Part shown: piece after piece, positions 15,957 through 37,510 of the stretch
How positions within the stretch are numbered: position 1 is the stretch's first letter
Layout of the letters: every line of letters begins with the position of its first letter
Assembly (NCBI GenBank): GCA_947628965.1
Contig: CANRBV010000001.1
Span: forward strand, 41,225 to 105,224
Reading direction: 5' to 3'
Source of the DNA: an uncultured Bacilli bacterium
Lineage (GTDB): Bacteria > Bacillota_I > Bacilli_A > RF39 > UBA660
Length of the DNA: 64,000 bases
Translations under genes and position numbers: made by a program
The notes under the pieces: generated by a model
What the model saw: the letters and a program-made list of their open reading frames with translations, nothing else
Database searches by the model: none
Told to the model about the DNA's origin: nothing

Positions 15957-15990
15957 CAAAAAAACTAGGATTTCCTATTGAAATTCCTAG
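15957..15990 (-). terminator. Rho-independent terminator downstream of tRNA-His
   Basis: ctagga..tcctag hairpin followed by a 7-T run on the minus strand. Confidence 0.5.
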
Positions 15991-16034
15991 CCTTTGCTAT
16001 AATCAAAAACCTTAAAGGTTTGATTTCCCAAATA

Positions 16035-18467: not shown

Positions 18468-18521
18468 TACTATTTTATCATAATCAAAAAAGAAGATACA
18501 AAAATTTGAACTTCTTTTTTC

Positions 18522-19889: not shown

Positions 19890-20214
19890 TTTTTTCCCTA
19901 CCTTCTATAAAAGAATTCACACTACTTGCAAAACGCGTCCATTCCTTTTTTTGTTCTTTGGTGTATTTCTTTCCTAATGCTGTTATATGGTAATACTTTC
20001 TTATTGGTCCTTCACTTGATTCTTCTAAATACGTTTCAAAATAGCCCTCATTGGTAAGTCGTTTTAGTATCGGGTAGATTGTTCCTTCATTAACATCGAC
20101 AATTTTACTTACCTCTTCTACTAGTTCATAGCCATATTTGTCTTTTTTTTCAACAATTAGTAAAACCAATAACTCCAATACCCCCTTTTTAAATTGTGTA
20201 TTTATCGTAACCAC
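19882..20214 (-). CDS. PadR-family transcriptional regulator
   Basis: GYELVEEV...GTIYPILKRLTNEGY winged-helix signature. Confidence 0.85.
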   Translation of the reverse strand: MVTINTQFKKGVLELLVLLIVEKKDKYGYELVEEVSKIVDVNEGTIYPILKRLTNEGYFETYLEESSEGPIRKYYHITALGKKYTKEQKKEWTRFASSVNSFIEGREKNE

Positions 20215-20280: not shown

Positions 20281-22560
20281 TTATCGTAAAGCCTCTACGG
20301 GATCTTTCTTACTTGCTAATTTGGCAGGAATCATTCCTCCAATTAAAGTAAGTCCTACGCTAGAAAGTATTAAAATAAGAGCGTGCAAAGGATTTAACAA
20401 AGCAATATTTTTTAATTTTGTTAAATGATAAAAAATGGAATTTATCGGTATTAAAAGTAATTTAGTTATTAAAATTCCTAAAATACCCGAAGAAAACCCA
20501 ATTAAAAAGGCTTCTGCGTTAAAAACTCTGGCTATATCTTTTTTTCTTGCTCCTAAACTTTTTAAAATGCCAATTTCATTGGTTCTTTCCAAAACCGAAA
20601 TGTACATGATAATACTGATCATAATGGAAGAAACAAATAAACTAATAGCACTAAATGCCACTAAAACAATCGTTATTGCATTCATAATATTTTGCAAGAC
20701 CGAAGATAGTGCTTTAGCTTCATCCTTATAAATAATTTGGTTTTCACTCTTCTTTCCATCGTTATAACGATCTAAATAATTCACTATTTTTTCTTTTGAT
20801 GTAAAATCTTTTGGATAGATTTGAATTGTATGTGGAATGGATTCATCCCCTAGAAAAGCTAAAGTTTGTTTTTTTAAAATTTGCCCTTCTTCATTTGCAA
20901 TATTGTAAGTTTCTCCTGTTAAAACGTTATACTCTTTGTTTTGTTGGTCTTTTACAATAGCAGAGTCTTTATTCTTAAGCATGATATAAAATGGTAAATC
21001 ATTCATATAGTAAAGTCCTGCCGTATCTACATAATCTTTATATTCTTCTTTTAAACGAATAATTCCTACCACTTTTAATGTAAGTGTATCTTTATTATCA
21101 TAAAGAGAATCTAAATTAGGATTGATTCTATAAAAGTCGCCATCTTTTTGATAATATTGATCATTAAATACTAGTTTTAAAGTACTTTCTAATATATGTT
21201 CAAAAGATATGGTTTCTTCAGACCCTAATCCTAAAGCATGGATTATATCTTCTTGAACCTGATTTTTGCTATCAACAACCAAAAGAAGTTCATCTTTTAC
21301 TTTGGCCATACGTCCTGCTAATATATCATATTTTTCACTTAAAAAACCTTCATTTTCTTCTTTTAAACTTTTAGGAAAACTTTCTAGAATGCTCGCATCA
21401 ATCGGTATTACTTTATCATCTATTTTATTAATTACATTTAATCTTGTATAATAAGAATAACTAATACCACTTATTATGGTCGGATTTATTTTTTCAAGGT
21501 ATGTTAAAAATTCTTTGTTTATATGATTTTGTTCCTTTATTACTTCTTTTGGTTTTTCTTTTTTTATTGCATAATCAATAGTTGGATACTCTTCAAACTC
21601 TTGAGTAGTTTCTTCTTGGCTCGATCTTGCCTCTATTTGATTTTGAATCACAATTGGCATTGCAGCCATTGTATTTTGTTCCAATACTTTTAGTTGACGA
21701 TTAAACCCATTTGATAGACTTAGGATTAAAGCAATTCCAATAATCCCAATACTGGAGGCAAAACTTATGGCAAAGGTTCGACCTTTTTTGGTTCGAATAT
21801 TATGAAAACTCAAATAAAGAGCTGATAAAAAATTCATTGAAGTTTTTTTAAATTTATCTTTTTTTGGTTCTTCTTCTAATTCTAATACTGGATTTGAATC
21901 ACTTATAATTTTTCCATCACACATCCTAATTACCCGCGTTGCATAATTCTGAGCTAGCTCTTTATTATGCGTAACCATAATCACTAACTTGTCCTTTGCA
22001 ATTTCCTTTATAAGGTTCATAATTTGAATTGAAGTTGTGGTATCTAAAGCCCCTGTCGGCTCATCAGCCAAAATAATGTCAGGATTACATACAAGTGCTC
22101 TTGCAATAGCTACTCTTTGCATTTGTCCTCCAGATAATTCTTTTGGTTTTTTGTGTATGTGTTCTTTTAAGCCAACTTTTTCTAACATTTCTTTTGCTAC
22201 ATGTCTTCTTTTTTTAAAAGAAATTCCTCTTAAAGCCAATCCCATTTCTACATTGTTTAAAATACTTATATGGTGAATTAAATGATAACTTTGAAAAATA
22301 AAACCAATGCAATGATTTCGATAAGAATCCCAATCACAAGTTTTAAATTTTTTAGTAGACTTATTATGAATAAGTAAATCTCCTGTATCGTAGTGATCTA
22401 ATCCGCCAATTATATTTAAAAGGGTTGTTTTGCCACTTCCACTTGGTCCTAATATTGCAACAAATTCATGACTTCGAAATTTTAATTGAACATTCTTTAA
22501 TGCAACTTGTTTAAAATTTCCTGTTTTATAACTCTTCGTAATATTTTTTAATTCTAACAT
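20281..22560 (-). CDS. Fused ABC transporter ATP-binding/permease protein (MacB/FtsX-like)
   Basis: Walker A GPSGSGKTT; LSGGQ signature; Walker B ILADEPT; C-terminal FtsX-type permease helices. Confidence 0.9.
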   Translation of the reverse strand: MLELKNITKSYKTGNFKQVALKNVQLKFRSHEFVAILGPSGSGKTTLLNIIGGLDHYDTGDLLIHNKSTKKFKTCDWDSYRNHCIGFIFQSYHLIHHISILNNVEMGLALRGISFKKRRHVAKEMLEKVGLKEHIHKKPKELSGGQMQRVAIARALVCNPDIILADEPTGALDTTTSIQIMNLIKEIAKDKLVIMVTHNKELAQNYATRVIRMCDGKIISDSNPVLELEEEPKKDKFKKTSMNFLSALYLSFHNIRTKKGRTFAISFASSIGIIGIALILSLSNGFNRQLKVLEQNTMAAMPIVIQNQIEARSSQEETTQEFEEYPTIDYAIKKEKPKEVIKEQNHINKEFLTYLEKINPTIISGISYSYYTRLNVINKIDDKVIPIDASILESFPKSLKEENEGFLSEKYDILAGRMAKVKDELLLVVDSKNQVQEDIIHALGLGSEETISFEHILESTLKLVFNDQYYQKDGDFYRINPNLDSLYDNKDTLTLKVVGIIRLKEEYKDYVDTAGLYYMNDLPFYIMLKNKDSAIVKDQQNKEYNVLTGETYNIANEEGQILKKQTLAFLGDESIPHTIQIYPKDFTSKEKIVNYLDRYNDGKKSENQIIYKDEAKALSSVLQNIMNAITIVLVAFSAISLFVSSIMISIIMYISVLERTNEIGILKSLGARKKDIARVFNAEAFLIGFSSGILGILITKLLLIPINSIFYHLTKLKNIALLNPLHALILILSSVGLTLIGGMIPAKLASKKDPVEALR

Positions 22561-22740: not shown

Positions 22741-23640
22741 TTAAATTTTATTTTTTTTCTTCTTTTTAATAAGAAAATATCCACCAAGCACAAGAAGCAA
22801 AGCAACAGCAAAACTAATTAAAATGTATTTTAAATTAAAAGTTTTTGTTTCTTCTTGTTCATTTTCTTCAAGGATTTCATTTTTTTCATCTGTTTTGTTT
22901 TCTACTTCATCTTCTTTACTTACATCTGTTTCGTTTGTATTTGCATCATTATTTATAGTATTGTTGTTTTCAGTAGTAGTATTAGAACTTGCATTATTAT
23001 TAGTAGTAGTAGTACTTGTATTCTTATTCGTAGTACTCGTATTTTTATTTTCTTCTTTTTCTTTATCTTGTTCTTTATTTTTATCGGTACTAGAAGACTC
23101 CTCTTTAGAAGAAGTATCTTCCTCTTGGTTTTCACTACTATTTATTTTATAAGTAAAGTTGTTTTTTTCAACTTCAGGAGTAATTTCATGAGACTTCCAA
23201 GCATTATCTAATGTTGTTAAAGACCCACATTGAATCGTATAGGAGATATCTTTTTTACTAGAAGTATCAAATAGAATATTTCCTAGTACTAAATCTTTAT
23301 CGATATTTAATAAATTGTGACTTGTTCCTACGCCACCTGTTACTACAACAATATTTAATTCTTTTGTTTTATCATCATAAGAAGTTTTTGTAGTAAAATT
23401 ACTACTTGTTAGTTTGCTATCTAAATTCATTTTTTGAAAGTTGATATTTCCATCTACTTTTAACGTAATATCAAGTCCTCCAATAAAACCATCTTCAAAA
23501 TGTAAAACGGATTTTATATTTCCATTACCCTCTTCGTGAAAAGTTAACTTTGTTGCAGCGTTTACAGAAGAAAGAGAAAGAAATAAACTGAGTACCAAAG
23601 TGGTAACAATTTTTATAAATGTTCTTTTCATTCTCTTCAC
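22741..23640 (-). CDS. Secreted membrane-anchored surface protein: N-terminal beta-rich (possibly cohesin-like) module, S/T/N/E-rich linker, C-terminal TM anchor
   Basis: Signal peptide; about 150-aa beta-strand-type segment; low-complexity linker; C-terminal hydrophobic helix + KKKKKNKI tail; 4-nt overlap with the giant upstream gene. Confidence 0.6.
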   Translation of the reverse strand: MKRMKRTFIKIVTTLVLSLFLSLSSVNAATKLTFHEEGNGNIKSVLHFEDGFIGGLDITLKVDGNINFQKMNLDSKLTSSNFTTKTSYDDKTKELNIVVVTGGVGTSHNLLNIDKDLVLGNILFDTSSKKDISYTIQCGSLTTLDNAWKSHEITPEVEKNNFTYKINSSENQEEDTSSKEESSSTDKNKEQDKEKEENKNTSTTNKNTSTTTTNNNASSNTTTENNNTINNDANTNETDVSKEDEVENKTDEKNEILEENEQEETKTFNLKYILISFAVALLLVLGGYFLIKKKKKNKI

Positions 23641-26600
23641 CTCTTATTACTAATTTCCATTTGTTTTAACTTACTATATTCTTTTAAATCCTTTAGAACA
23701 ATTGATGTACTTGTTAATCGTTGTCCTTCATGCGTAATAGCATCATTTACACGATATAGATAAGCTCGAATACTGGTGCTAGACTTTCTCATTTTTTCGT
23801 ATTCTTCTTTACTCATAACATATAGCCACGTTCCATTTGCAACATCATAAACCGTATGATCACTATTTAATTCAGCAAAGATTAATTGATATCCGCCATA
23901 GACTTTTGCCTCATCATTACTATCTGCAATTAATACTGTATTAAACGCAGGGTTACCACGATAAGAACCTTCTATAACAACAGATCCAGCTGTAATTTTA
24001 CCATCTGGGTCGTTTTCACAACCACTTTCTAAATAACAATAATCACTTGTTAATACACCAATATTTGTAATATCGACATTATCTCCTGGAGGAGCAATCA
24101 CATCAATTTCTGCACCAGATAAAACATTATTACCATCAGATTCAATCTTAATATAATTTATATCATTATAAGTCCATAATTGACTTTCACTATCAGTATT
24201 TTGTCCCATGAAGTAAATGATTTCTTCTGGTTTTTCGCTTGTTAAAGTAAACGTACCTTTTCTTGCAAGATGCCAATCATTATCATTTCCTGTAGAACTT
24301 ACATATACTTTATATTTAGTAATTGTATTTTCATCTAGTTTATCATTTTCTACTAAGGCATGATACTTAATACCACTTACAGACATTCTATTATTTAAAT
24401 TTAATAAAACATAAGCATTTCCATTATCCACTGTAATACTTGGTTTATCACTGGTTTGATTTAAAGTTTTTACTTTTTCTGTGCCTTTAAATCCTGTTTC
24501 AATTTTACCATCAATTAAGTTGTTTACTTTTAATGTAGCATAATCCATTTCTTCGTTTTCATTATCGACAATTTCATTTGCTTCTTTTACATTTGAAGTA
24601 ATACTAAAGGCATCCTTTTTAACACTACCATCATGACTTATTTTTACTTCTTCTAAAGTAACTTCATTCGTTTTATGTAAATAATAATCATAAGCAACCA
24701 CACTATATGTATAAGCTCTATTATTTTCCGCTCCAACGTTGTCAACAAATTCATTCGTACCCTTTTCAACAAAGCCAATAGAAACACCATTACGAAGAAT
24801 TTCATAACCTAAAATCTTATCGTTGTCTTTATTAACATTAAACTCTAAAGTAACACGTTTATTTTGACTATCAGCATCTCTAATAGAAGATTCTAAAATA
24901 TTGGCACCTTCATTAATTCCAACACTTTGACGCAAAGCAAAACGTCTTGCTTGATCATTTAAGTAGTAAATCGCTCTTTTTTCTTTTGCATAGTTTAATT
25001 CTTGTAATTCTTCTTTTAAAGAGCTAGATGCTTTTAATCCCCAAATTTCAAAAAAGTTCGTTAAGTCTTTCTTGACAGCCATACAAGCATAAAGAATAGT
25101 TAAATCGTCTCTAGAATAATTTTTGGTATTCTTATATGTACGAGCAATTTTATTTATTTTTGCGTAAATTGAATTTTGATCTTCAAATGTTTTTTCATTA
25201 TCATAAGCAAGATGTAATTGCCAGTACATTCCTAACTGAACAAAAACATTTTGAGCTCTTCCCGTTGTATGGGAAGTTACTTTTTCATAAATTTTATCAT
25301 AACCATTGTTTTCTAAACGGGAAGGATCACTATCATTGCTTGTTTGAGCAAGCAAAGAATAAATATTATTCGTTACTTCTGCAAAAACAGTATCTTTTAA
25401 ATTGATTTGATGTCCAACTTCATGACTAATACCCCATCCAAAATAACCTGTTTTGGTATTACTATTGCGACTGGCTTGAACAAGGCCTGCAATTGAACCA
25501 TATTCAATGCCTATATGGTAACCTCCAGCATACATAAAAGCTCCATCAAACATTTGCATATAACGAACATTAATTCTCGCTTTTGGCATTTTATCCGTTT
25601 TTTCTGTTTGGTCTGTATCACTAAATCCTTTTTGACGATAGAATAGTTCCATCATTTCATCGAAGGCTTCCATAGATTCATATAAACGATTTGTTTTTTC
25701 TTCAATGGTTTTTTTATTTGATTTTAAAGCATCTTCTACAGCTACACTGGAAACGGACAACAAACCGTATTTTGTTACAATTTCTGTAGAGCCTAAAACA
25801 CTTTTTTGTTTATCAAAGCTTTTTCCGATAGATGCATAAGCACTTTCTAAAGTACTATTGTAATTTTCTAATTCTTTAATATATTTTTTTATTGCTGCTT
25901 TTTTATCTGTCTCATTTTCCAATAAGGTTGTATCAACCATTGGAATTTTAGTTCCTCCACTTACACGCACTTTTATTGGATTAGTAGTACTAGGTGTACT
26001 TGTATAGCGAATATAAACGCTTCCACCACGTTCATCAGTAGAAGAACCAATTTGTGGAACTGTAATAATATTTAAACCCTTATGTAAACTTTCCGTTGTA
26101 TAAGCTTTATTCCATTCACTTGCTTCAGCATGGTATTGAGTAAATATCACTTGGGCATTAATTGCCCCATTACTTCCAACATAAACATTGATTGTCTCTC
26201 CAGGTCTAGCAACAATTCCTAAAGGTTGATAATCACTAATCGTCATTGCAAATTTAACATGACCATTATACGAATTGGAAATGTTTGGATTTAGAGTAAT
26301 AACATCATCAATATGTTCATCATTTAATATTTTCTCCGCATAATCCAAATCTGCAAGTACGCTATCTTTATAAGGAGAATACTCTCCATTATCTTGTTCA
26401 TTTGCTCTTTTTCTTAATTCATTAATTTGCTTTTGATCTACGCCCTCTGCTAGGACAAGACGAAGATCGTCTGTAAATAAGGCAGCAACATCGTCCACTA
26501 ATGAATCGTAATGATAAAATTTTACTTCATCAATTTTAATATCACGAACATTTCCAGCAACAGTTAATCCAAATGCTACCGCTTTAGCAGTAATTGGATT

Positions 26601-28808
26601 TTCTAATTTTAATACATAGTATTTACGTCCCTTTTCATCTTGTTTTGAAAGAAGGGTTCCTTTTACTTCTTTACGCTCTGTATTGTCATAAATCTCTTGG
26701 TTAGACTCCCAATAATGCAATTTAACATCATTGCTATTTGGTCCACCAGATTTTAAAGAAGCCGCATAATTATCTGGAACTGTTAAGACAAATTCATCCA
26801 TTTGATAGGCATTATCTAAAACAATCACTGGGGTTCCTAAGTTGTAAGCACCATTTGCTGAAATTTGCCAATCATTATGATACCAATAAGTGTCATAATG
26901 GTCATCAACAATCGCAAATTTATTATCATTCGTCATGGTTCCCGTATGATAGAATACGTTTTCAATATGATCAGTTTTCTTATTTTTTTGATCATAACCA
27001 CTATTAATTAATTTATATTTTGGTACAATTGCAGCACCTGCTTCTTTCGTAGTTGCTTTTACTAAAGTATAACTATCACTTTCTCCTAAGTCATTTACTC
27101 CAAGTACATAAGCTTCATATTCAGTATCAGCTTTTAACCCACGTACAGAATAACTATTTGTCGAAATAGATTCTACAACAGAATAAACAGCCGTTCCAAC
27201 TTCACGATAATATAATTTATAAGATTTGGTATCGTCCATTTTTTTCCAACTAAAGTCTATTCCTCCATAGGTAGGAGTTGCAACCACCATATCTACTTTT
27301 GGTGGTTTTCTTGTTGCTTGTGGAGTTCCTTCGTGAGCATCACTCCAACCACTACGCCATTCTTGATTTACAGATTGAACGTATATATAATATGTTTCAT
27401 AATTTTTTAAATCTTCAATTGTAAAGGTTGTAAAAGTAGTTTGGAAAATAACTCCACTTTCCATTTTAGGCCCTACAATCTTAATTTCATAACCTGTTAC
27501 ATTTGGTACATCGTGAAAAGTAATAGTTAGTTGTTCACTTTTTGTATCATCAACATGAATATTTTGAGGAACATAAAATCCATCTGGTTCTTTTGTTTTT
27601 GTTTTAACATTATTTAAAAATTCTACTTTTGCTATATCTGCTAAAGTATTTGAAGAAGTTTCGGTAATTATAATAGTTACTTTTTTAACAGCAACTTGTT
27701 TTCCTAAGTCTACTTTAATTGTCCCTTCACTTGCTTCGTCTGTAAATAAATGTACTTCATTTAAACCTTGTAAAGTATCATCTACTTCATATTCAAGAGT
27801 TTCATTATCCTCTGTTAAAACGAGTAATTTCATTTTTTTAGGAATATTTTCTTCTCCTATTCCAATTCTAATTTCACTCATTTCAACAGTTTCACTATTA
27901 GAATTTTTTCCTAAATCAAGTGCAAACTCAATTGGATTATCTATAGAAATAGCTTCTTCATTTGCAGATTTTAAAGTTACAATTCCTGTATCACTAAATA
28001 AATCACTTAAATTACTTTCCTCACTAATTGTTGTTCCATTTGCTACTTCTAAAGACACATTTTCATTATTCATGATAAGACTTGTATTTTCAATTTTAGC
28101 ACTTTCTTTTTTAGAATTTAAAATTGCTGTTATGTAATTTAAATCTGCAATATCAACAACTCCATCTAAATTTAGATCATTTTTCGTGTCATTATTTTTA
28201 ATAGATTCCATTAAAATCTCTTCATCTTTTTTATTTACTTGATTGTCTTGATTTACATCACCAATTTCAAACATTCCAGCTTCATTAGATAAACTTATTC
28301 TTTTAGAAAAATCATCTAAAGTAACATCTACGCTATAGGTTACAAAATGGTTCCCGCTAAGTTCTAAAGTATACTTTCCTGTATTTAGTGAATATAAATT
28401 CATACTATAGTAAACTATATTTTCACTAGTAACGTCTCCTGATAAAACAAAACCATTCGTATTTCGTTTTGTAATTAAAGAACGGATAGTTTGTGTACCT
28501 AATTTAATAGAAGTTTCTAAAATACCATCTTTAGCGTTTTTCATTTCATTTAATGAAATAGAGGCTTTGTTATTATTTTCATCAATAATGGATAAAGCAA
28601 TATTTGTTTCTTCTCTATTTCGAAAAGGAAGAGCTAAATGAAGTTCTACTTCTATATTCCCTTTTTCTTGTATATCTCCTAAAGCAATACTACGAGTTTC
28701 TTCCCTTGTTTCCATTGCCAAAACAATTAAAGGTGAAAAATTATAAAAAAGCATTGCCCATATTAATAAGATTGATACTAGTTTATTTAAAATTTTCATA
28801 CTAACCAC
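23637..28808 (-). CDS. Giant secreted multidomain protein (1723 aa) with dockerin-like Ca-binding repeats, FN3-like modules and an M60-like/enhancin-type HExxH zinc-peptidase domain
   Basis: Signal peptide; GDVNQDNQVN...DLNLDGVVDIADL dockerin repeats; GWGISHEVGHQ zinc-binding motif. Confidence 0.7.
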   Translation of the reverse strand: MVSMKILNKLVSILLIWAMLFYNFSPLIVLAMETREETRSIALGDIQEKGNIEVELHLALPFRNREETNIALSIIDENNNKASISLNEMKNAKDGILETSIKLGTQTIRSLITKRNTNGFVLSGDVTSENIVYYSMNLYSLNTGKYTLELSGNHFVTYSVDVTLDDFSKRISLSNEAGMFEIGDVNQDNQVNKKDEEILMESIKNNDTKNDLNLDGVVDIADLNYITAILNSKKESAKIENTSLIMNNENVSLEVANGTTISEESNLSDLFSDTGIVTLKSANEEAISIDNPIEFALDLGKNSNSETVEMSEIRIGIGEENIPKKMKLLVLTEDNETLEYEVDDTLQGLNEVHLFTDEASEGTIKVDLGKQVAVKKVTIIITETSSNTLADIAKVEFLNNVKTKTKEPDGFYVPQNIHVDDTKSEQLTITFHDVPNVTGYEIKIVGPKMESGVIFQTTFTTFTIEDLKNYETYYIYVQSVNQEWRSGWSDAHEGTPQATRKPPKVDMVVATPTYGGIDFSWKKMDDTKSYKLYYREVGTAVYSVVESISTNSYSVRGLKADTEYEAYVLGVNDLGESDSYTLVKATTKEAGAAIVPKYKLINSGYDQKNKKTDHIENVFYHTGTMTNDNKFAIVDDHYDTYWYHNDWQISANGAYNLGTPVIVLDNAYQMDEFVLTVPDNYAASLKSGGPNSNDVKLHYWESNQEIYDNTERKEVKGTLLSKQDEKGRKYYVLKLENPITAKAVAFGLTVAGNVRDIKIDEVKFYHYDSLVDDVAALFTDDLRLVLAEGVDQKQINELRKRANEQDNGEYSPYKDSVLADLDYAEKILNDEHIDDVITLNPNISNSYNGHVKFAMTISDYQPLGIVARPGETINVYVGSNGAINAQVIFTQYHAEASEWNKAYTTESLHKGLNIITVPQIGSSTDERGGSVYIRYTSTPSTTNPIKVRVSGGTKIPMVDTTLLENETDKKAAIKKYIKELENYNSTLESAYASIGKSFDKQKSVLGSTEIVTKYGLLSVSSVAVEDALKSNKKTIEEKTNRLYESMEAFDEMMELFYRQKGFSDTDQTEKTDKMPKARINVRYMQMFDGAFMYAGGYHIGIEYGSIAGLVQASRNSNTKTGYFGWGISHEVGHQINLKDTVFAEVTNNIYSLLAQTSNDSDPSRLENNGYDKIYEKVTSHTTGRAQNVFVQLGMYWQLHLAYDNEKTFEDQNSIYAKINKIARTYKNTKNYSRDDLTILYACMAVKKDLTNFFEIWGLKASSSLKEELQELNYAKEKRAIYYLNDQARRFALRQSVGINEGANILESSIRDADSQNKRVTLEFNVNKDNDKILGYEILRNGVSIGFVEKGTNEFVDNVGAENNRAYTYSVVAYDYYLHKTNEVTLEEVKISHDGSVKKDAFSITSNVKEANEIVDNENEEMDYATLKVNNLIDGKIETGFKGTEKVKTLNQTSDKPSITVDNGNAYVLLNLNNRMSVSGIKYHALVENDKLDENTITKYKVYVSSTGNDNDWHLARKGTFTLTSEKPEEIIYFMGQNTDSESQLWTYNDINYIKIESDGNNVLSGAEIDVIAPPGDNVDITNIGVLTSDYCYLESGCENDPDGKITAGSVVIEGSYRGNPAFNTVLIADSNDEAKVYGGYQLIFAELNSDHTVYDVANGTWLYVMSKEEYEKMRKSSTSIRAYLYRVNDAITHEGQRLTSTSIVLKDLKEYSKLKQMEISNKR

Positions 28809-28877: not shown

Positions 28878-31163
28878 TTATCGATTTTTTTCTTTATATG
28901 ATATATCTCGTTTAATGGAATATAATTTTATTAATTGTTCATAACTTATTTGTATTACTTTTCCACCTTTAGGATTTATCTTATTTCCGAAAACAATCCA
29001 AATAACATCCATAGGAATATCAGGCATACTTGCTATTCCATCAGTAAATATTATTTTATTTTCAACTCTTTTAGTAAATGCGCGAACAGCTACATTAAAG
29101 TCAGTTCCACCATTTCCTTCAAGTCCTTCAAATCCCATATTTTCAATATCTGCTTCAGTTCTTATTTCGTGAAAGCCATAAAATTTCGTATCAAAACAGC
29201 CAACTTTTATCTTTGAGTACGGTAAGATATTTAAACATTCTCTTAAAAAATTTTTTAGCAATCTTTCATTTACAGAACCGCTTGTATCCAATAAAATTTC
29301 TGTTTCTGCCTTTGGTTGTTCTTCTAAATTAGCATGTATAACGTCGTCTTCAATATAGGCATTTTTATAAGACCAATCAACATCGTATTGAATTGGTTCT
29401 TTTAATATATATCTCCAATCTATTATCGGTTTAGATTTTCCTATATCATTTATGATTCTCTGTTCGCTATTAGTAGATGTTCCAGCTTCCATTGCTTCTT
29501 GAGATACAGTTTCTATTGCTTGTTGAGATAAAACTTGCTTTAATTCTTCTAATTCTTTTCTCTTTTCTTCTAAATTTTTTTTAAAAGCGCTTTTCTCGCC
29601 CATTTTACTAATTTTGCCTATCTCTTGTTGTAATCTTTTTTCTTGTTGATTTTGTTCTTCCATTTGTTGCTCATCATCTTGAAATTCTTTTTTATCTTTT
29701 GATTCAGCTTCTTTTAGTTTTTTTACTGCATCTTTCCACATACTATGAGTATCATGACCTACATCATCATTTTGTTCTTCAGAAGGAATTGATTCTGATG
29801 AAGAAGTTCCTTGCCCTTGTGATTGATTTTCATTTTGATTTTGAGATTCATCTAAAGAACTTTGGGATTGATCTTGTGATCTTTGTTCAGATGTGCCCTG
29901 TTGATTTTGTGATGAACTTGTTTGTTCCTCACTTTTCTCTTCATTTTGTTCATTAGATTGAGATTCTTTTTTATTTTTTGATACAGCTTCTTTTAATTTT
30001 TTTACTGCATCTTTCCACATACTATGAGTATCATGACTTACATTATCATTTTGTTCTTCAGAAGGAATTGATTCTGATGAAGAAGTTCCTTGCCCTTGTG
30101 ATTGATTTTCATTTTGATTTTGAGATTCATCTAAAGAACTTTGGGATTGATCTTGTGATCTTTGTTCAGATGTGCCCTGTTGATTTTGTGATGAACTTGT
30201 TTGTTCCTCACTTTTCTCTTCATTTTGTTCATTAGATTGAGATTCTTTTTTATTTTTTGATACAGCTTCTTTTAATTTTTTTACTGCATCTTTCCACATA
30301 CTATGAGTATCATGACTTACATTATCATTTTGTTCTTCAGAAGGAATTGATTCTGATGAAGAAGTTCCTTGCCCTTGACCTTGTTGTCCTTGTTTAGAAG
30401 ATGATGAACTTTGTTGATTTTGTTGTGAATTGGATTGTTCTTGATTTTGTTCTTCATTTTGAGTTTCAGAATTTTGCCCTTGTGATTGATTTTCGTTTTG
30501 TTTTTGAGAACCTTTTGAAGAACTTTGCCCTTGACCTTGTTGCCCTTGTTTAGAAGATGATGAACTTTGTTGATTTTGTTGTGAATTGGATTGTTCTTGA
30601 TTTTGTTCTTCATTTTGAGTTTCAGAATTTTGCCCTTGTGATTGATTTTCGTTTTGTTTTTGAGAATCTTTTGAAGAATTTTGCCCTTGATCTTGTTGTC
30701 CTTGTTCAGAAGATGATGAACTTTGTTGATTTTGTTGATTACCTTGACCATTTTGTCTTTTACTTTGTTGCTTTTCTTTAAGTAATTTATCATAAAACTC
30801 TTCTGCATCGTAATTTATTGCTTCTGCAATATCTACTACACCATCAACAAGTTTCAACCCATCTCGTTTTAAAAATTGATTTATTACACCATCTGTTGCT
30901 ATATTCCAAACATAAGGATCTTTATTTTCACTTCTTCTTATATGATCAAACGCTATATGGCATACCTCATGAGCAAATATAAAAATTTGTTCATCTGTGT
31001 TAAGATTTTTTAAAAATTCTAGATTATAAAATATCGTTTGTCCATCAGTACATGCAGTTGATATTTTTTTATTCTCTCTATAGTTTACATTTGCAACTAC
31101 ACTCCCAAAGAAAGGGTATTTTACAAGCATTTTTCTTTTTACAGATTCAATATTAAAGTCCAT
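28878..31163 (-). CDS. HExxH metallopeptidase-like N-domain + long Q/S/N/E-rich repeat region + C-terminal vWA domain (COG3864/DUF2201-like, MoxR partner)
   Basis: FIFAHEVCHIAFDH (HExxH); C-terminal LLDTSGS MIDAS (DxSxS) motif; sits with a MoxR-like AAA ATPase. Confidence 0.7.
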   Translation of the reverse strand: MDFNIESVKRKMLVKYPFFGSVVANVNYRENKKISTACTDGQTIFYNLEFLKNLNTDEQIFIFAHEVCHIAFDHIRRSENKDPYVWNIATDGVINQFLKRDGLKLVDGVVDIAEAINYDAEEFYDKLLKEKQQSKRQNGQGNQQNQQSSSSSEQGQQDQGQNSSKDSQKQNENQSQGQNSETQNEEQNQEQSNSQQNQQSSSSSKQGQQGQGQSSSKGSQKQNENQSQGQNSETQNEEQNQEQSNSQQNQQSSSSSKQGQQGQGQGTSSSESIPSEEQNDNVSHDTHSMWKDAVKKLKEAVSKNKKESQSNEQNEEKSEEQTSSSQNQQGTSEQRSQDQSQSSLDESQNQNENQSQGQGTSSSESIPSEEQNDNVSHDTHSMWKDAVKKLKEAVSKNKKESQSNEQNEEKSEEQTSSSQNQQGTSEQRSQDQSQSSLDESQNQNENQSQGQGTSSSESIPSEEQNDDVGHDTHSMWKDAVKKLKEAESKDKKEFQDDEQQMEEQNQQEKRLQQEIGKISKMGEKSAFKKNLEEKRKELEELKQVLSQQAIETVSQEAMEAGTSTNSEQRIINDIGKSKPIIDWRYILKEPIQYDVDWSYKNAYIEDDVIHANLEEQPKAETEILLDTSGSVNERLLKNFLRECLNILPYSKIKVGCFDTKFYGFHEIRTEADIENMGFEGLEGNGGTDFNVAVRAFTKRVENKIIFTDGIASMPDIPMDVIWIVFGNKINPKGGKVIQISYEQLIKLYSIKRDISYKEKNR
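29690..30790. repeat. Intragenic near-identical tandem repeats: 3 x 279 nt (about 29690-30370) and about 2.7 x 156 nt (about 30370-30790)
   Basis: Read in the DNA (gatacagcttcttttaatttttttactgcatctttccacatactatgag... at 29701/29980/30259; ccttgaccttgttg[t/c]ccttgtttagaag at 30373/30529/30685). Identical antisense ORFs offset by 279 nt in the track. Confidence 0.9.
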
Positions 31164-31173
31164 AATTTATTCC

Positions 31174-31569
31174 TCAAATATGAGCAACTAATGAATAAAT
31201 TTCTTCATTAATTGTTTCTTTATTTATATTTGTAGCTGTTAAAATGATTCTTGTGTTTTCTGGTATTTTAAATGTGGACACTTGTCTATACTCTAATAAT
31301 TCTTTAAATTTTAATTGCTCTTCTTTAGAGATACTATCAATATCTTTTATAACTATTATTTTAGCTTCATTTGTATTAGTTAAATCATAATACCATTTAG
31401 GAGCTAGGAAATCTACTCCCTCATAATAACCATTCAATTCTTTTGTTTCACAATTTGCTGGTATTATTACAGATTTTGGAATACTGATATTAGATGCAAA
31501 ATCAATAAGAATAGGAGCAACATTAATTGAAAGATAACTGTTTAACATATTCATTTTATCATTATTCAT
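31174..31569 (-). CDS. Hypothetical 131-aa protein, middle gene of the ATPase/vWA operon
   Basis: 4-nt overlap with the upstream ATPase gene; 10-nt gap to the vWA gene. Confidence 0.55.
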   Translation of the reverse strand: MNNDKMNMLNSYLSINVAPILIDFASNISIPKSVIIPANCETKELNGYYEGVDFLAPKWYYDLTNTNEAKIIVIKDIDSISKEEQLKFKELLEYRQVSTFKIPENTRIILTATNINKETINEEIYSLVAHI

Positions 31570-33494
31570 TTTTTTCTACCTCCCGCAGCAAGTCTGGCTT
31601 CAGCAATTAATTCTAGTCTAGATTCATCACCATGTGACCATAACGAATCAAATATTGCCCCAAACTCCGCTCCTAGACTTATTACGAAACTTCTTACTTT
31701 TGCCATATTTTTTTCGTCAACTTGAGAAAGACCCATTGTCGTAGCATATCTGGAGGCAGTATTTAATGATTGTATGTCTAGTCCACTATAGGTTCCATTT
31801 ATTACATCATTTAACGTTATAACTGGTTGATTGCAGAACTCTAAAAATTCTCTAGTTATATCTTCTCCCACTAAAGCTCTTAACATTCCTGGGCTTCCAG
31901 TAGCGTAAAGCATTTTAGAAGCCATTTCCCATTTTCTAGGATCAGCATTTGGCTTTACACCATTATATTGACTTCTTAATACTGCACCTTTTCTATAAGC
32001 TATATAGGAATAAATTGCAGGATGAATATTATGTTCACTTGCCCATTTTAACCATCCATCCGTTGTTGTTCTGATATATACATGTGCAAATCTATTAAAT
32101 AATGGTTCGGCTAATTGATTTGCTGATAAGGAATCTTTCATCTCATTACCAGCAGCAACTATTCTTGCATTATCTGGTAGTTGCCATATTCCATTTACTT
32201 CTCTATCCAAAATAATGTTAAAAGCTATTCCTTGAATACTAGGCAAAGCATTTGTTATCTCATCAAAGAAAACGATATGTAATTTATCAGGTTCTGCCTC
32301 ACATTTAGCTTCTAATTTTTTTAACCATGTAGGTTTTATATCAATCATTTCACCTTTTTCAGAATTATAAGCACTTTTTCCATTTAAACTTTCAGGTGTT
32401 GCATTTCTTAAATATATAATGACACAATCAGGGTCAATTTGTTTTACTCTTGCGCTTTTTCCTTCACTTGAAGCACCATGTAAAAATACAGGCACTCTAC
32501 TTGCAATTGCACCTTTAATAATTTCTTCTTCACTGACTTGTCCAAAATTAAATCCATAGGGATTGTTTTTTTCACTTCTTTCTGAATATTGATAAGAAGT
32601 ATTTTTTACTTTTTCAATTTCTTTTTGGTGCTGATTAGAAGTTTTGCCAGAATTTGCTTGTATCACTTTAGTTTTACTTGATACTATATCTCTTACAAAA
32701 TAAGTATTTAAAAAATCATACATATCTGTGCTGGTCCAATCAGAATCAGAATAAAAATAACCATCTTTATTAAATCTTATTCCCGATGCAATTATATTTT
32801 TGCTTAACATAACCTTTTTAAAATTATCAACATACCATTTAAGTGGAGATACCTCTATCCAAACAATATCTCCATTTTTATATTGTTCTCCATTTGAAAG
32901 TAAAGAAACACGTGGATTTCTATTATACACTCTTACATATTTTCTTCCATTATATTCAAATTCCTCATTTTTCATTGGGTAAAATCTTGTCAGTTTATCA
33001 TCGCATTTGATGGAATCCGTTGTATATGTTTTTCCAGTTTTTTTTAATATTGTACCAGATTGATATGCTTGTTCCAAATCATATTCCATAGATGAACTAA
33101 CGACATATTGTGGATATTCTCCATACTCTATTTCTACAAACCTATGTGGTAGTATTCTCGTTATTCCATTTGAAGAGTTAGATTGGTGAACGTCTAATAT
33201 AGTTGGGCGAACTCCATTTGTCCTAGTTCCAGCAGAAAATTTACTGATAGAACCATTTATATCAACAGCAAGTGGATTTCCTTGTCCATCAGAGCTCATT
33301 AAATTGTAATTACCTGTGTGCCCTTTTAAAGAATTATCATAATTTACATAAACATCTTCAGAAACGAAACCTCCTAATAATATAGCAAAATCTGTTATTG
33401 CACACTTTGCACCCATATTTTTTTTAATCATTCCATTAAAATCATAAATTTGTTCTGCATTAAGTAATGTAATTTCACCACTACCAAAATTCAT
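31566..33494 (-). CDS. MoxR-like AAA ATPase with an uncharacterised ~320-aa N-terminal domain
   Basis: Walker A GASSEGKS; Walker B IVFFDEITNA; AAGNE sensor region; no recognisable motif in the N-terminal half. Confidence 0.65.
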   Translation of the reverse strand: MNFGSGEITLLNAEQIYDFNGMIKKNMGAKCAITDFAILLGGFVSEDVYVNYDNSLKGHTGNYNLMSSDGQGNPLAVDINGSISKFSAGTRTNGVRPTILDVHQSNSSNGITRILPHRFVEIEYGEYPQYVVSSSMEYDLEQAYQSGTILKKTGKTYTTDSIKCDDKLTRFYPMKNEEFEYNGRKYVRVYNRNPRVSLLSNGEQYKNGDIVWIEVSPLKWYVDNFKKVMLSKNIIASGIRFNKDGYFYSDSDWTSTDMYDFLNTYFVRDIVSSKTKVIQANSGKTSNQHQKEIEKVKNTSYQYSERSEKNNPYGFNFGQVSEEEIIKGAIASRVPVFLHGASSEGKSARVKQIDPDCVIIYLRNATPESLNGKSAYNSEKGEMIDIKPTWLKKLEAKCEAEPDKLHIVFFDEITNALPSIQGIAFNIILDREVNGIWQLPDNARIVAAGNEMKDSLSANQLAEPLFNRFAHVYIRTTTDGWLKWASEHNIHPAIYSYIAYRKGAVLRSQYNGVKPNADPRKWEMASKMLYATGSPGMLRALVGEDITREFLEFCNQPVITLNDVINGTYSGLDIQSLNTASRYATTMGLSQVDEKNMAKVRSFVISLGAEFGAIFDSLWSHGDESRLELIAEARLAAGGRKK

Positions 33495-33804
33495 ATTTCA
33501 CCTCGTTCGCATATCATTTACATATATTTTACCATAAAATATTTAATAATAATATGTCAAAAAGTATAGTTTACAAAAATAAAGTAAAATATAGGAAATA
33601 AAATTAAAATTGACTTGATTTATGATTTTTTTGTTCTTCTTTATTTTTGAATAAAACTAAAATCTCGTTAATAACTATATTTTTATTGTGTAAATTTCAA
33701 ATTCTGTATCATTCTATTTATGATGTTACTAAAAAATACACAAAAAAATGTTATATCGGTATTTATTGATATAACATTTTAAGTGTTTAGTTTAAAGCAT
33801 TCTA

Positions 33805-36177
33805 TTATTTATCTCTTAATTTTGCTTTAAATGTTTCTTCTACTTTTTTTATTATTGCATTAAAAACTTCCATTACTTCTTCTTCTTGTAAAGTTCTTGT
33901 TTCATCTTTAAAGGTTAATTTATAAGCAATAGATTTTTTACCCTTTTCTATTTCAGGATATAAATCAAATACTTCACAAGTTGATAATATTCTTTTTCCC
34001 GTGTGAACAATTTCTTTTTTAATGCTTTCACTATCAATTTCGTTCGCTACAATAAAAGCTACATCTTTTACAATTTCTGGATATTTATTTGCTTCTTTAT
34101 ATTTTATAGGTTTAATACTTGCTTGATCTAAAATATTCATAGAAAGTTCACAAACAAAAAGTTCTTCTTTTAAAATATTTGGGTGTATTTTACCAATAAT
34201 ACCTACTCTTTTCTTATCTAGATAAATACTTGCACTAACTCCTGGATGTAAGGAATCTATTTCTTCACTTACAAAAGAAAAACGATTTTTAAAACCTAAG
34301 TAGGTAAGTAAGTTTTCAACTATTCCTTTTAATAAATAAAAGTCTGCTTTAATATTTATTCTTTGCCATTCATTTGTTAGATAGTTTCCTTTCATTAAAA
34401 TTGCTATTTTTGTTGTTTCATTAAAATCTTTATCATAAGTTTTAGCAATTTCATAAATATTGACATCCTTAACGTTTCTCTTTTTATTATATTCGTAGGT
34501 ATTTAATAAAGAGGGTAAAATGCTTGTACGAATAATACTTTTATCAACACTCATTGCATTTGGTAAAGTAATTGGTTCTTTTTGATCATAACAAAATAAT
34601 TTAGCCATTTCAGGACTAATTAAGGTATATGTTTTTACTTCGTTTAAACCAAGTGTTCTTAAACGTTTAGAAATTTCTTTTCGTATTTTAACATCTCCAA
34701 CATATTCTCCCATTCTAGTACTGGCAGTAGGCAAAGTAGAAATTAAGTTATGATAACCATAAAGTCTTCCAATTTCTTCAGCAATGTCGTTTACATTTGC
34801 ATCAATATCTAATCTCCTACTTGGAATTGTTACCATAAATACATCTTTTTCTAAAGTATAAGGAAAACCTAAACGATCCAATTCTTTTTCCATATCTTTT
34901 GTTTCAATAACTATACCAAGCATTTTATTTACATCTTCGGCTTTAAAATTAACTATTTTTGGTGTTTTATCGATTACATCATGTTTTACAGTATCCTTTA
35001 GTATAGTTGCATTAGCGTATTTTTCAAGTAAATGACAAGCTCGGTTAATAGCCATATTTGTATACTCATAACTTAAACCTTTTCCATAGCGAATAGATGC
35101 TTCGCTTTTTAAATTCAAATGACTTGCTGTATTTCGAATAGAAACAGCATCAAAAATTGCACTTTCTATTAAGATTGTTTTCGTATTTTCATCAACTTCA
35201 GTATTTTCTCCCCCCATAACTCCAGCGATACAAACTGGTTTATCGCCATCGGTAATTACAATATCGCTTGATTTTAAAGTTCTCTTTTTACCATCCAAAG
35301 TAACAATTTGTTCGTTTTCCTTAGCATCACGTACTAAAATATGATCTTTTAATTTCTCCTTATCAAAAAAATGAAGAGGTTGTCCAAATTCAAGCATAAC
35401 ATAGTTAGAAATATCAACAACATTATTAATTGGGCGCATTCCAGCAGCAGTAAGTCTTTTTTTAATAAATTCTGGACTTTCTTTAATTTCAACATTTGTT
35501 ACCATTTTGGCAAGATAATAAGGGCATTTTTTAGTTTCGACTTCTAATTTAAAATGATTTTTTATAGAATCACTATTTTCTTTATATTCTAGATTTGGTA
35601 ATGTTACTTTTTTATTTAGAATAGAAGCAATTTCATATGCGAAACCAATATGATAAAAACAATCATTATTACGATGTTTATGAATATCTAGTTCATACAA
35701 AGTATCATCATAACCTAAATATTTTAGTGCATCTACACCAACTGATGCTTTATTATCAACTTCATAAATTCCTTTTTGATAATTTTCTTCTGTTTTTTCT
35801 TCTAGTCCTAATTCAAATAAAGCGCAAAGCATACCATTGGATTCTACCCCACGAATTGTACTCTTTTTTATTTCAAAATCTCCAGGAAGTATTGCTCCTG
35901 GCAAAGCAACAATCACTTTTAAACCTGCTTTTACATTTGGGGCTCCACATACAATTTGGTAAGTCTCTTTTTCATTTACTTTTACTTGGCAAATATGCAA
36001 ATGGTCGCTATCTGGATGCGGTAGACATTCTAAAACTTCTCCAATTACTAAATGATCAATATGGTTCGTTATTACTTTTTCTACATTAATTCCAGCTTTC
36101 GTAATTTTTACTGCTAATTCTTTTAAATCCTCATCTTTAATATCTACATAATCACTTACCCACTCTAAACTAATCAT
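33805..36177 (-). CDS. pheT: Phenylalanine--tRNA ligase beta subunit
   Basis: MISLEWVSDYVD N-terminus; tRNA-binding, B3/4, B5 and FDX-ACB layout; follows pheS. Confidence 0.9.
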   Translation of the reverse strand: MISLEWVSDYVDIKDEDLKELAVKITKAGINVEKVITNHIDHLVIGEVLECLPHPDSDHLHICQVKVNEKETYQIVCGAPNVKAGLKVIVALPGAILPGDFEIKKSTIRGVESNGMLCALFELGLEEKTEENYQKGIYEVDNKASVGVDALKYLGYDDTLYELDIHKHRNNDCFYHIGFAYEIASILNKKVTLPNLEYKENSDSIKNHFKLEVETKKCPYYLAKMVTNVEIKESPEFIKKRLTAAGMRPINNVVDISNYVMLEFGQPLHFFDKEKLKDHILVRDAKENEQIVTLDGKKRTLKSSDIVITDGDKPVCIAGVMGGENTEVDENTKTILIESAIFDAVSIRNTASHLNLKSEASIRYGKGLSYEYTNMAINRACHLLEKYANATILKDTVKHDVIDKTPKIVNFKAEDVNKMLGIVIETKDMEKELDRLGFPYTLEKDVFMVTIPSRRLDIDANVNDIAEEIGRLYGYHNLISTLPTASTRMGEYVGDVKIRKEISKRLRTLGLNEVKTYTLISPEMAKLFCYDQKEPITLPNAMSVDKSIIRTSILPSLLNTYEYNKKRNVKDVNIYEIAKTYDKDFNETTKIAILMKGNYLTNEWQRINIKADFYLLKGIVENLLTYLGFKNRFSFVSEEIDSLHPGVSASIYLDKKRVGIIGKIHPNILKEELFVCELSMNILDQASIKPIKYKEANKYPEIVKDVAFIVANEIDSESIKKEIVHTGKRILSTCEVFDLYPEIEKGKKSIAYKLTFKDETRTLQEEEVMEVFNAIIKKVEETFKAKLRDK

Positions 36178-37222
36178 TATTTTTCTCCCTTCTATCAAAA
36201 TCTCTTATTTCTCTTAAATCAGTTTGATAAAATGTGCGAATATCACTAATGCCATATTTAAGCATTGCAAGTCGTTCTGCTCCAAAACCAAATGCAAAAC
36301 CACTCCATATATTTGGATCATAGCCACAATTTTTCAAAACATTAGGATGTACAATTCCAGCACCACTTACTGTAATCCATCCTGTATTTTTACATAAAGA
36401 ACAACCTTTTCCTTTGCAAGCAAAGCAAGAAATATCTGTTTCTACAGAAGGCTCGGTAAATTGGTAATAACTTGGTCTAAAGCGAACTTCACAACTTGAA
36501 CCAAATAATTTTTTAAAAATAGCATCCATTGTACCTTTTAAATCTGAAAGACTAACATTTTTATCGACAAGCAAACCTTCAATTTGCATAAATTGATGCG
36601 AATGGGTTGCATCATCATCATCTCTACGATACGTTTTTCCAGGGCAAATCATACGAATTGGCTTATCTCCACCCGCTTTAAGCATGGTTCTTGCTTGCAC
36701 TGGAGAAGTTTGACTACGCAACAAAATTTCTTCTTCTTTTATATAAAATGTATCTTGAGCATCTCTTGCAGGATGACCCTTTGGTATATTTAACAATTCA
36801 AAATTAAAACGATCTTCCTCTATTTCTGGTCCATCCACTACATCATAGCCCATAGACATACAAATATTTTCTATTTCTTCAATAATGTGTTCTAAGATAT
36901 TAGGTGCACCTAAAGGTATCTTTACTCCTGGTAAAGTAATATCAATTTTTTCCTTTTCCAACTTTTCTTTAATTTCTAAATCCTCATAATACCTTATTTT
37001 TTCTTCAATTTGAGAAGTAATTTCATTTTTTAAATCATTTAATATTTTTCCAAATTCTCTTTTCTCTTCATTATTTAATTCTTTTAAATGCATTGTTAAT
37101 TCATTAATAGGGCCTTTTTTTCCTAAATATAAAATTTTTAACTCATTCACTTCTTTTAAATTTGTTGCTTTTTCAATATTTGTTAAAGCTTGTTCTTTTA
37201 ATTTTTTTACTTTTTCATTCAT
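36170..37222 (-). CDS. pheS: Phenylalanine--tRNA ligase alpha subunit
   Basis: Class II aaRS motifs (HPARD, FRPSYYQFTEPS, GFAFGFGAERLAML); start set at MNEKVKK with GGAGG RBS. The longer track ORF runs through the leader terminator. Confidence 0.9.
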   Translation of the reverse strand: MNEKVKKLKEQALTNIEKATNLKEVNELKILYLGKKGPINELTMHLKELNNEEKREFGKILNDLKNEITSQIEEKIRYYEDLEIKEKLEKEKIDITLPGVKIPLGAPNILEHIIEEIENICMSMGYDVVDGPEIEEDRFNFELLNIPKGHPARDAQDTFYIKEEEILLRSQTSPVQARTMLKAGGDKPIRMICPGKTYRRDDDDATHSHQFMQIEGLLVDKNVSLSDLKGTMDAIFKKLFGSSCEVRFRPSYYQFTEPSVETDISCFACKGKGCSLCKNTGWITVSGAGIVHPNVLKNCGYDPNIWSGFAFGFGAERLAMLKYGISDIRTFYQTDLREIRDFDRREKNND

Positions 37223-37239
37223 TTTTTCTTCCTCCTTAA

Positions 37240-37480
37240 AATTAAAAAAGCCCCTTACAAATGTAAGGGACGAAATATAATCCGCGGTACCACCCAAATT
37301 CTAGAAATTTTCTAGCACTTATTTTAGATTTAACGCATCTGTACGATAAAATTAAAGCAAGTGAATTTCGCATTTATTCTTTATCTTTAGATAGTTTCAG
37401 CGTACCCTATCTAATCTCTGTTTGAAGATAGAATAAATCTACTTAAAATTGCTCTCAAACATTTTATTGAGTTTATTATA
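37240..37480 (-). promoter_or_regulatory. T-box riboswitch leader of pheST with intrinsic terminator (37244-37269)
   Basis: T-box conserved sequence AAUUUGGGUGGUACCGCGG on the minus strand (37282-37300); followed by cccuuaca-uuu-uguaaggg hairpin + U-run; ends immediately 5' of pheS. Confidence 0.8.
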
Positions 37481-37510
37481 GCACATAAATTTCATTTAAG
37501 TACAATCTTT

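Follow-up and report, generated by a model that had tools for sequence, protein, structure and literature searches.

What a MoxR-like ATPase, a small protein and a metallopeptidase-vWA protein do together is the question raised by a three-gene locus in the DNA of an uncultured Bacilli bacterium (GTDB lineage Bacteria; Bacillota_I; Bacilli_A; RF39; UBA660). The locus lies in a stretch of 64,000 nt (GenBank assembly GCA_947628965.1, contig CANRBV010000001.1, positions 41,225 to 105,224 of the forward strand), which we call the window and number from its first letter. An earlier note, made from the letters of this DNA, had proposed a diversifying conflict system of the vWA-MoxR type. The three open reading frames (ORFs) that it reported, their sizes, their 4-nt overlap and the motifs it quoted were all recovered and mapped, and the ORF coordinates are exactly those given there. 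The ORFs are co-directional on the minus strand and encode proteins of 642, 131 and 761 aa: the ATPase (gene 1, 31566-33494), a 131-aa protein (gene 2, 31174-31569, overlapping gene 1 by 4 nt) and a peptidase-vWA protein (gene 3, 28878-31163). Since full-length homologues number in the thousands, the observation of this triad is far beyond chance. Our results show that it is an intact, horizontally acquired accessory cassette of a large gut-Bacillota family.

A diversity-generating retroelement in related loci

Gene 1 joins an N-terminal binding domain (N-domain) to a MoxR-like AAA+ ATPase in a single polypeptide, and it is the N-domain that ties the family to diversity-generating retroelements (DGRs). 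The triad was preceded by a 339-aa RVT_1 reverse transcriptase (RT) and a 193-aa gene in the first two homologous loci. There, a 100-nt direct repeat connected the spacer between the 193-aa gene and the RT to the 5' part of the ATPase gene, and 11 of its 12 mismatches fell at adenines of the upstream copy. Seventy-five related loci from species-representative genomes were fetched and scanned by script. A full 193-aa gene and RT lay upstream in 12 of the 75, and RT only or RT fragments in eight more. Template and variable repeats could be paired in 10 loci (80-103 nt, 82-91% identity), the template lying between the Avd-like 193-aa gene and the RT, and the variable repeat within the ATPase N-domain at aa ~67-106. 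Across these ten loci, 103 of 111 pooled mismatches were at template adenines, compared with a template adenine content of 28% (binomial P ~1e-46, for pooled loci that are not independent), and 88 of the 103 fell at codon position 1 or 2.

The accompanying proteins agree with this picture. The relatives' RT carries the motifs LGNQSSQ and YMDD, which we take to be typical of DGR RTs. The 193-aa protein spans the NCBIfam DGR-Avd profile from end to end (E-value 1.9e-5, which falls short of the curated cut-off), and its match to Pfam bAvd is weak. Among genes sharing at least 99% identity in the AAA half and 98-100% in the N-domain flanks, identity drops to 83-93% over aa 58-100, a divergence that reads as the mark of targeted hypermutation still under way in natural populations. 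Together, the repeat pairs show, at the level of sequence, that a DGR in the relatives rewrites a patch of ~30 residues in the binding domain by adenine-directed mutagenesis. The earlier idea that recognition diversifies in such systems thus gains strong support, with the relatives' ATPase N-domain as the target of the variable repeat.

In a maximum-likelihood tree of the AAA half, DGR-bearing loci are spread over at least three deep branches, and at least seven gains or losses are required; the root of this tree is not established, and some of the loci counted as DGR-less are cut upstream by contig ends. Repeated loss from a DGR-associated ancestor would be the simplest reading. Fragments of the RT gene lie upstream of template-less triads at L036, L043, L050, L060, L061 and L062, and are direct evidence of DGR decay in place.

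The window holds no such element. Neither the relatives' RT nor PF00078 found a match in the window's genome (G000, 1.23 Mb, 91% complete), no second copy of window 33100-33400 occurred in that genome or in the window flanks, and the 310-nt spacer between pheT and the ATPase gene contained neither an RT remnant nor a template. Alignment with the relatives' variable-repeat/template-repeat (VR/TR) pairs places the equivalent of the variable repeat at aa 58-100 (33195..33323, minus strand). This zone is the most diverged stretch of gene 1, with 52% nt identity to the nearest relative where the N-domain on either side has 77-78% and the AAA half 89%; it also departs from scaffold residues that are conserved elsewhere, such as the Trp of a 'GW' motif. 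Within it, GTTCGCCCA (V95-R96-P97; 33204..33212, minus strand) is identical to the 3' end of the TR/VR homology in DGR-bearing relatives and holds the only CGC among the 29 Arg codons of gene 1, 25 of which are AGA. We regard GTTCGCCCA, as a suggestive match only, as a probable fossil of the retrohoming boundary.

In the AAA-half tree the window sits in an 18-member DGR-less group (support 82/79). A trans-acting template was sought in clade-mates, and the two genomes checked held no second copy of the variable zone. Clade-mate genomes do carry other DGR-like RTs elsewhere, which are 32-39% identical. One DGR-like RT in a relative (G047:C2:331-1242, L115) is interrupted by seven in-frame TAG codons and by no other stops, which would fit a TAG-recoded phage. 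Since there is neither an RT nor a template in the window's genome, we infer that the window copy is a frozen-specificity member of the family that has lost its mutator.

The three proteins of the triad

The N-domain of the window ATPase (aa 1-270; 32685..33494, minus strand) is mostly beta in an AlphaFold2 model, which is confident for aa 1-275 (predicted local distance difference test (pLDDT) 89.5, predicted template modelling score 0.91). Foldseek found no significant match to this domain in PDB or BFVD. Ten of 30 family members match DUF6273 (PF19789), all weakly (best E-value 8.5e-5), and one longer homologue weakly matches Fib_succ_major. We suggest that the N-domain is DUF6273-like, a weak relationship in which a lectin fold is unconfirmed. 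In gut phages, DUF6273 has been reported to be a C-lectin-like domain targeted by DGRs, and the targets there include the 'tentaclins', whose variable repeat is likewise N-terminal (PMC10743442; bioRxiv 10.1101/2024.10.15.618418). Some genomes keep such a target after DGR loss, as the window does. The phage targets are, however, virion receptor-binding proteins with Ig-like domains, whereas the domain described here is fused to an AAA+ motor and is predicted to be cytoplasmic.

Given that the gut-phage DUF6273 targets bind receptors (PMC10743442; bioRxiv 10.1101/2024.10.15.618418), the variable domain might be exposed on the cell exterior and serve as an adhesin or receptor-binding protein, as in tentaclins and most other DGR targets. 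We consider this highly improbable, because reading by eye revealed no signal peptide or membrane segment in the three proteins, the N-terminal hydrophobic stretch belongs to a confidently folded globular model, and the motor to which the domain is fused depends on ATP, which it must draw from the cytoplasm.

A full-library profile search found the N-domain in 3234 cluster representatives. Most of these are ATPase fusions, some proteins carry two or three tandem copies, and others are stand-alone genes of ~300 aa. A second N-domain occurs either in a neighbouring gene or within proteins of 818-1005 aa with two or three tandem N-domains (loci L030, L044, L056, L063, L068, L074, L076, L077; P0010, P0012, P0071, P0125-P0127), and a stand-alone gene of ~311 aa is seen, for example, at P0182 between the genes for rpoC and an M16 peptidase. 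Some AAA halves with 89% identity or more carry N-domains that are only ~60% identical, a sign that N-domains have been swapped between ATPase halves.

A linker (aa 271-319; 32538..32684, minus strand) separates the two halves of gene 1. It is of variable length in the family alignment and is modelled with low confidence (pLDDT <50 at aa 275-308), as expected of a disordered segment, and is followed by the AAA+ module (aa 320-642; 31569..32537, minus strand). The module includes Walker A (GASSEGKS, aa 340-347; 32454-32477), Walker B (IVFFDEITNA, aa 407-416; 32247-32276) and an arginine-finger region (NRFAH; 32082-32096), all on the minus strand. These three motifs and AAGNE, which holds the sensor-1 Asn, are invariant or nearly so in 30 homologues. 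PHROG 1297, labelled 'ATPase', matches aa 324-611 (E-value 1e-43), and Foldseek on the AAA half returned NorQ with a probability of 1.0, MCM2-7 ranking equally high. No solved structure in PDB was matched by the sequence of the ATPase. A word-indexed search yielded at least 2869 ATPase homologues, the best of which are 59-70% identical over the full length. A gene for a vWA protein with a metal ion-dependent adhesion site (MIDAS; DTSGS) lies two genes downstream in the same operon-like unit.

Pfam had been expected to report AAA_5 for the ATPase and DUF2201_N plus a vWA domain for gene 3. The second expectation was borne out, whereas AAA_5 was the only Pfam match to the ATPase and stayed below threshold (17.5 bits vs a 22-bit cut-off). 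A phage homologue passes AAA_5 and is annotated as MoxR-like.

The 131-aa protein had no Pfam or NCBIfam family match, no PADLOC match and no useful sequence match among solved structures; PHROG gave a weak match to a clamp loader. A profile of 20 orthologues aligned with the ATPase-family profile (hhalign probability 92.7%, E-value 4e-7), aa 37-130 of the small protein pairing with ATPase aa 362-471, from before Walker B through sensor 1. The pairwise BLASTP E-value is 0.016. Since the P-loop is missing and the Walker-B position reads IIVIKDID (31336-31359), the 131-aa protein is, as judged from these alignments, an inactive, Walker-A-less paralogue of the ATPase core. Its gene is kept where the ATPase of the locus has an identity of at least 53%, and is missing from a distant two-gene clade at ~50% identity. 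The earlier note had taken both this gene and the N-terminal extension of the ATPase for lineage-specific elaborations. The loci surveyed instead show both to be conserved throughout the three-gene family, and the extension is a family feature since nearly all homologues are ~600-640 aa long.

Gene 3 combines an N-terminal metallopeptidase domain with a C-terminal vWA-like domain. Pfam assigns DUF2201_N (E-value 2e-34; N-terminal part, 30774..31163, minus strand) and the vWA-like DUF2201 (E-value 6e-10; 28947..29297, minus strand). The HExxH motif reads HEVCHIAFDH (aa 65-74; 30942-30971, minus strand) and the MIDAS reads DTSGS (aa 626-630; 29274-29288, minus strand). PHROG 1314 matches the protein (E-value 5.5e-60), and its label 'HNH' looks like a mis-annotation. 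A sequence search of solved structures gave nothing useful, only a weak match to the minizincin MJ1213.

The two domains of gene 3 are separated by a low-complexity insert of ~430 residues (aa ~131-560; 29484..30773, minus strand) that is rich in Q, S, E, K and N (Q 22%, S 20%, E 13%). The near-identical tandem repeats described earlier in this linker are present and in-frame. One array comprises 2.5 copies of a 279-nt unit (29679-30377, minus strand, 98% identity) and another 2.4 copies of a 156-nt unit (30369-30737, minus strand, 97% identity), and the HDTHSMWKDAVKKLKEA segment occurs three times, at aa 284, 377 and 470. A unit homologous to the 156-nt one is found in 3.7 copies in L016, and L056 carries a 126-nt array. 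The distance between the conserved blocks of gene 3 ranges from 217 to 1261 nt across loci and is longest in the window, so that the insert is hypervariable in length; it also grows by tandem duplication. Three other assemblies share an identical ATPase (L013, L014, L015), and their contigs end 450-550 nt into gene 3 in two cases and within gene 2 in the third. Since these independent contigs break at or shortly before the repeats, which defeat short-read assembly, the copy number in the window contig is uncertain.

An accessory cassette and its surroundings

Only five of the 24 other species of the genus gave any match, and no comparable homologue was among them. One held a 51%-identical copy that contains an in-frame TAG, a second held fragments, and the remaining three held divergent paralogues of ~700 aa. 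Divergent paralogues of ~600-700 aa, 33-39% identical in the N-domain and AAA parts, were seen at G002:C7, G007:C1, G008:C1 and G045:C22. The three closest relatives (pheT 84-88% identical, genomes 91-92% complete) gave no match to the triad. The triad of the window is flanked by pheST on one side and an M60-like peptidase gene on the other, while in the closest relative (G043) pheT and the orthologous M60-like gene flank a different gene of 524 aa. The pheT-M60 interval acts as a slot of variable content. The 524-aa ORF (L104:10168-11742, minus strand) is unrelated to the triad and has a weak match to the lectin-type FGE-sulfatase family (E-value 0.01).

The insertion sites of other family members differ as well. 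Among DGR-less clade-mates, one site is between rpsR and rpmE, another adjoins enolase and argS, and a third adjoins ftsEX. One DGR-bearing relative is within a conjugative element that also encodes PrgI, a VirB4-like ATPase, CHAP, PemK and serine recombinases, and other relatives are near Fic and methylase genes. A general association with integrative conjugative elements was rejected: VirB4 or CHAP genes occur within 7 kb only at L018 and L034, and serine recombinases at four other loci. A housekeeping triad is likewise ruled out by the patchy distribution in the genus and the different insertion sites. The locus is accessory and variable, as had been supposed.

The triad had been placed upstream of pheST. 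It is in fact transcriptionally downstream of pheS (36170-37297) and pheT (33805-36198), which lie on the same strand. Right after the pheT stop codon, we read from the sequence an AT-rich, terminator-like hairpin with a T-run (33742..33779, minus strand), which would separate pheST from the triad; a consensus terminator scanner skipped it because it needs at least three G-C pairs. A promoter-like site, TTGACA-18-TATGGT (33531..33560, minus strand), matches 10 of 12 consensus positions ~35 nt 5' of the ATPase start, and a GAGGTG ribosome-binding site lies between the two. Over the final ~45 nt before the ATPase ATG, the sequence is conserved at the corresponding place in L030 and L029. Because of the hairpin after pheT, the promoter-like site and the ribosome-binding site, the triad looks like a transcription unit of its own.

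These features bear on whether the window cassette still functions. It may be an orphaned relic that has drifted since the DGR was lost, which would account for a 91%-complete genome without an RT or template, for a variable zone that is the most diverged part of gene 1 and has lost scaffold residues such as the 'GW' Trp, and for a peptidase linker that has ballooned by recent duplications. We find this improbable. The window is ~27% G+C, and in a genome of that composition stops arise easily, yet the three ORFs are intact and the catalytic motifs are all kept. The AAA half is still 89% identical to relatives, the triad has its own promoter-like and ribosome-binding sites, and the repeats keep the reading frame. 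Moreover, an entire clade without a DGR retains an intact triad at various sites.

Several other features of the window were noted. The M60/enhancin-like gene (23637-28808, minus strand) encodes 1723 aa with an N-terminal hydrophobic leader, fn3 repeats and a peptidase domain with HExxH, and is a candidate mucin- or glycoprotein-degrading enzyme; its orthologue in the closest relative is 87% identical and in the same position. A row of genes on the minus strand at 17523-20214 contains a PadR-family regulator (19882-20214), a HAAS-domain protein (18522-19889) and a classical AAA ATPase (17523-18467), adjoined by an ABC/FtsX fusion (20281-22560). At the gathering threshold, a tRNA-His gene (16035-16110, minus strand) is the sole Rfam match across window positions 1-64000. 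The G+C minimum of the window, 20%, is beside it at 14001-16000. Bacillota usually have a T-box leader upstream of pheS; here Rfam found none at 37298-37510 at the same threshold.

Known relatives and a proposed mechanism

Close counterparts of the pair formed by genes 1 and 3 are in phages. About 680 phage records contain relatives of the AAA half (~28% identical) and ~500 contain relatives of gene 3, chiefly from N4-like Schitoviridae and jumbo phages. Acinetobacter phage nACB1 has, in order, a MoxR-like ATPase, a 137-aa gene and a 404-aa DUF2201_N plus DUF2201 protein. The 137-aa gene was considered as a homologue of the 131-aa protein and rejected, as no similarity was detectable. The phage motif HEIMHNVYNH is the counterpart of HEVCHIAFDH in the window, and both pairs share HExxHxxxxH, a MIDAS and a low-complexity insert at the equivalent position, which is short in the phages (~45 aa vs ~430 aa). 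Conversely, the phage ATPases are ~370 aa long and lack the N-terminal binding domain present in the window, no DGR is associated with the phage pair, and the window triad has DUF2201_N and DUF2201 beside a MoxR-like ATPase but no phage flanks. The family combines a phage-type MoxR plus DUF2201 pair with a DUF6273-like head of the kind used by phages.

The MoxR and metallopeptidase-vWA pair has been noted in jumbo phages, with a proposed role in virion assembly (Iyer et al. 2021, PMC7824862). The triad could by analogy be an assembly or maturation chaperone with a processing protease for a specific complex of the cell or of a mobile element, such as a virion, a conjugation apparatus or a surface structure, and the binding domain would simply recognise this client. 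The conservation of the pair in Schitoviridae and jumbo phages speaks for this, as does one relative that adjoins type IV secretion system genes. We nevertheless consider it unlikely, since a fixed client needs no hypermutable patch, N-domain swapping or duplicated N-domains, and the neighbours differ at every insertion site. In addition, the fused family was found on a single contig of the 2.9 million viral contigs in IMG/VR, a 47%-identical copy with an Avd-like gene, an RT and the triad.

Outside phages, MoxR-type AAA+ ATPases with a MIDAS-bearing vWA partner are known from NorQ/NorD, CbbQ/CbbO and RavA/ViaA. The classical role of MoxR and vWA pairs and the Foldseek match to NorQ would allow the triad to be a chaperone of the NorQ/NorD, CbbQ/CbbO or CobS/CobT type that inserts a metal cofactor into a neighbouring enzyme or reactivates it. 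We give this very little credence. Unlike the known pairs, the triad has no conserved client gene beside it at any site, and its vWA partner carries a peptidase domain; the cassette is also patchy in the genus, and in relatives the ATPase is a DGR target.

The triad does not belong to the vWA-MoxR ternary systems of the Aravind group, to which it had been likened. Membership was tested against published definitions (Kaur et al. 2020, PMC7159879), and no VMAP, iSTAND, FtsH or beta-propeller component was present, so that the required third component is missing. In those systems variable effectors are C-terminal to the vWA domain, whereas here the vWA domain is itself C-terminal and the sole other domain is an N-terminal zincin. 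They are enriched in multicellular lineages, while the hosts here are gut metagenome-assembled genomes of ~1-1.5 Mb assigned to 'Bacilli/Tenericutes/Clostridia'.

Two other groups come closer. DGR-diversified putative antigen sensors adjoin MoxR/vWA genes, and fusions of a C-type-lectin domain to AAA (CLec-AAA) occur in candidate phyla radiation bacteria (CPR; Dore et al. 2024, PMC10907252). The sensors of multicellular bacteria share with the present family a proposed sensor-transducer-effector logic (PMC7159879, PMC10907252). They differ in that the variable domain is on the vWA protein or a separate C-terminal CLec target and not on the ATPase N-terminus. The third component of the present family is a 131-aa P-loop-less AAA+ fragment, its hosts are unicellular, small-genome gut Bacillota, and the window copy has no DGR. 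The CPR CLec-AAA targets resemble the family in fusing a DGR-variable domain to a dynein/midasin-type AAA in small genomes (Paul et al. 2017 as summarised in PMC10907252; 'Midasin' targets in Wu et al. 2018, PMC5758913). Their variable repeat is C-terminal while that of the present family is near the N-terminus, and the available texts report neither a peptidase-vWA partner nor an inactive AAA fragment. We suggest that the family works most like these two groups. The fused architecture itself is not described in the searchable literature, the coverage of which is incomplete.

The reading we favour, at about even confidence, is that the triad is a recognition-proteolysis module with a plausible role in biological conflict. 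All three proteins would be cytoplasmic. The ATPase would form a ring with six binding domains on display, and these would capture a protein ligand whose likeliest origin is a competing or invading genetic element. Via a long flexible tether, the vWA/MIDAS domain would dock the peptidase onto the ring, much as NorD, CbbO and ViaA dock onto their MoxR partners, and ATP-driven remodelling would couple ligand capture to proteolysis, whether the substrate is the ligand itself or a cellular target. A role in regulating or capping ring assembly may fall to the inactive AAA+ fragment, and specificity would be fixed in the window genome. These steps are modelled on the NorQD, CbbQO and RavA-ViaA pairs (PMC9976466, PMC13036017) and on the DGR-diversified sensors (PMC10907252). 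A conflict role is favoured because the recognition head is hypermutable and swappable, which points to an arms-race ligand. The module may either defend the host or serve a mobile element against host defences.

A number of points weigh against this reading. MoxR ATPases are generally remodelling chaperones and not protease partners, and the stoichiometry of the ring, its docking and the proteolysis are each predicted. Having no DGR, the window copy may serve a fixed function outside conflict. Its ATPase has no DUF6273 (PF19789) match of its own, and the C-type-lectin fold is unconfirmed by structure search (best Foldseek E-values 0.04-0.09). The clade-mates have housekeeping genes as neighbours, and genes for defence or mobile elements are absent from their vicinity. 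PADLOC (PADLOC-DB 2.0) gave no relevant match, only a weak ThsB-like one in the N-domain (E-value 0.0013) and none in the products of genes 2 and 3. By analogy, the phage peptidase-vWA and MoxR pair, with its proposed part in virion assembly (PMC7824862), would also suggest another role.

What cytoplasmic DGR targets sense, and how MoxR-vWA pairs convert binding to output, have so far been approached mostly through prediction, in large multicellular bacteria that are hard to handle and in uncultured CPR lineages. The present family holds sensor, motor, adaptor and protease in three genes, ~7 kb with the DGR, and its natural DGR-bearing and DGR-less versions and natural head swaps make it directly testable by heterologous expression. 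For annotation, it provides names for two blank pieces, the ATPase N-domain and the 131-aa protein. The window is a DGR-less member of this uncharacterised, now better-defined family, and less striking than its DGR-bearing relatives. If the mechanism holds, the family would offer a natural template for retargetable protein degradation. In its boldest form, which we put forward tentatively as possible though doubtful, the family would be a compact and self-contained programmable recognition-and-proteolysis machine belonging to unicellular gut bacteria and their mobile elements, in which an AAA+ ring with six heads rewritten by a DGR hands foreign proteins to a tethered zincin, and of which the window encodes a hard-wired receptor, fixed once the mutator was lost. 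If true, this would mean anticipatory receptor-diversifying immunity, or counter-immunity, in 1-Mb genomes.

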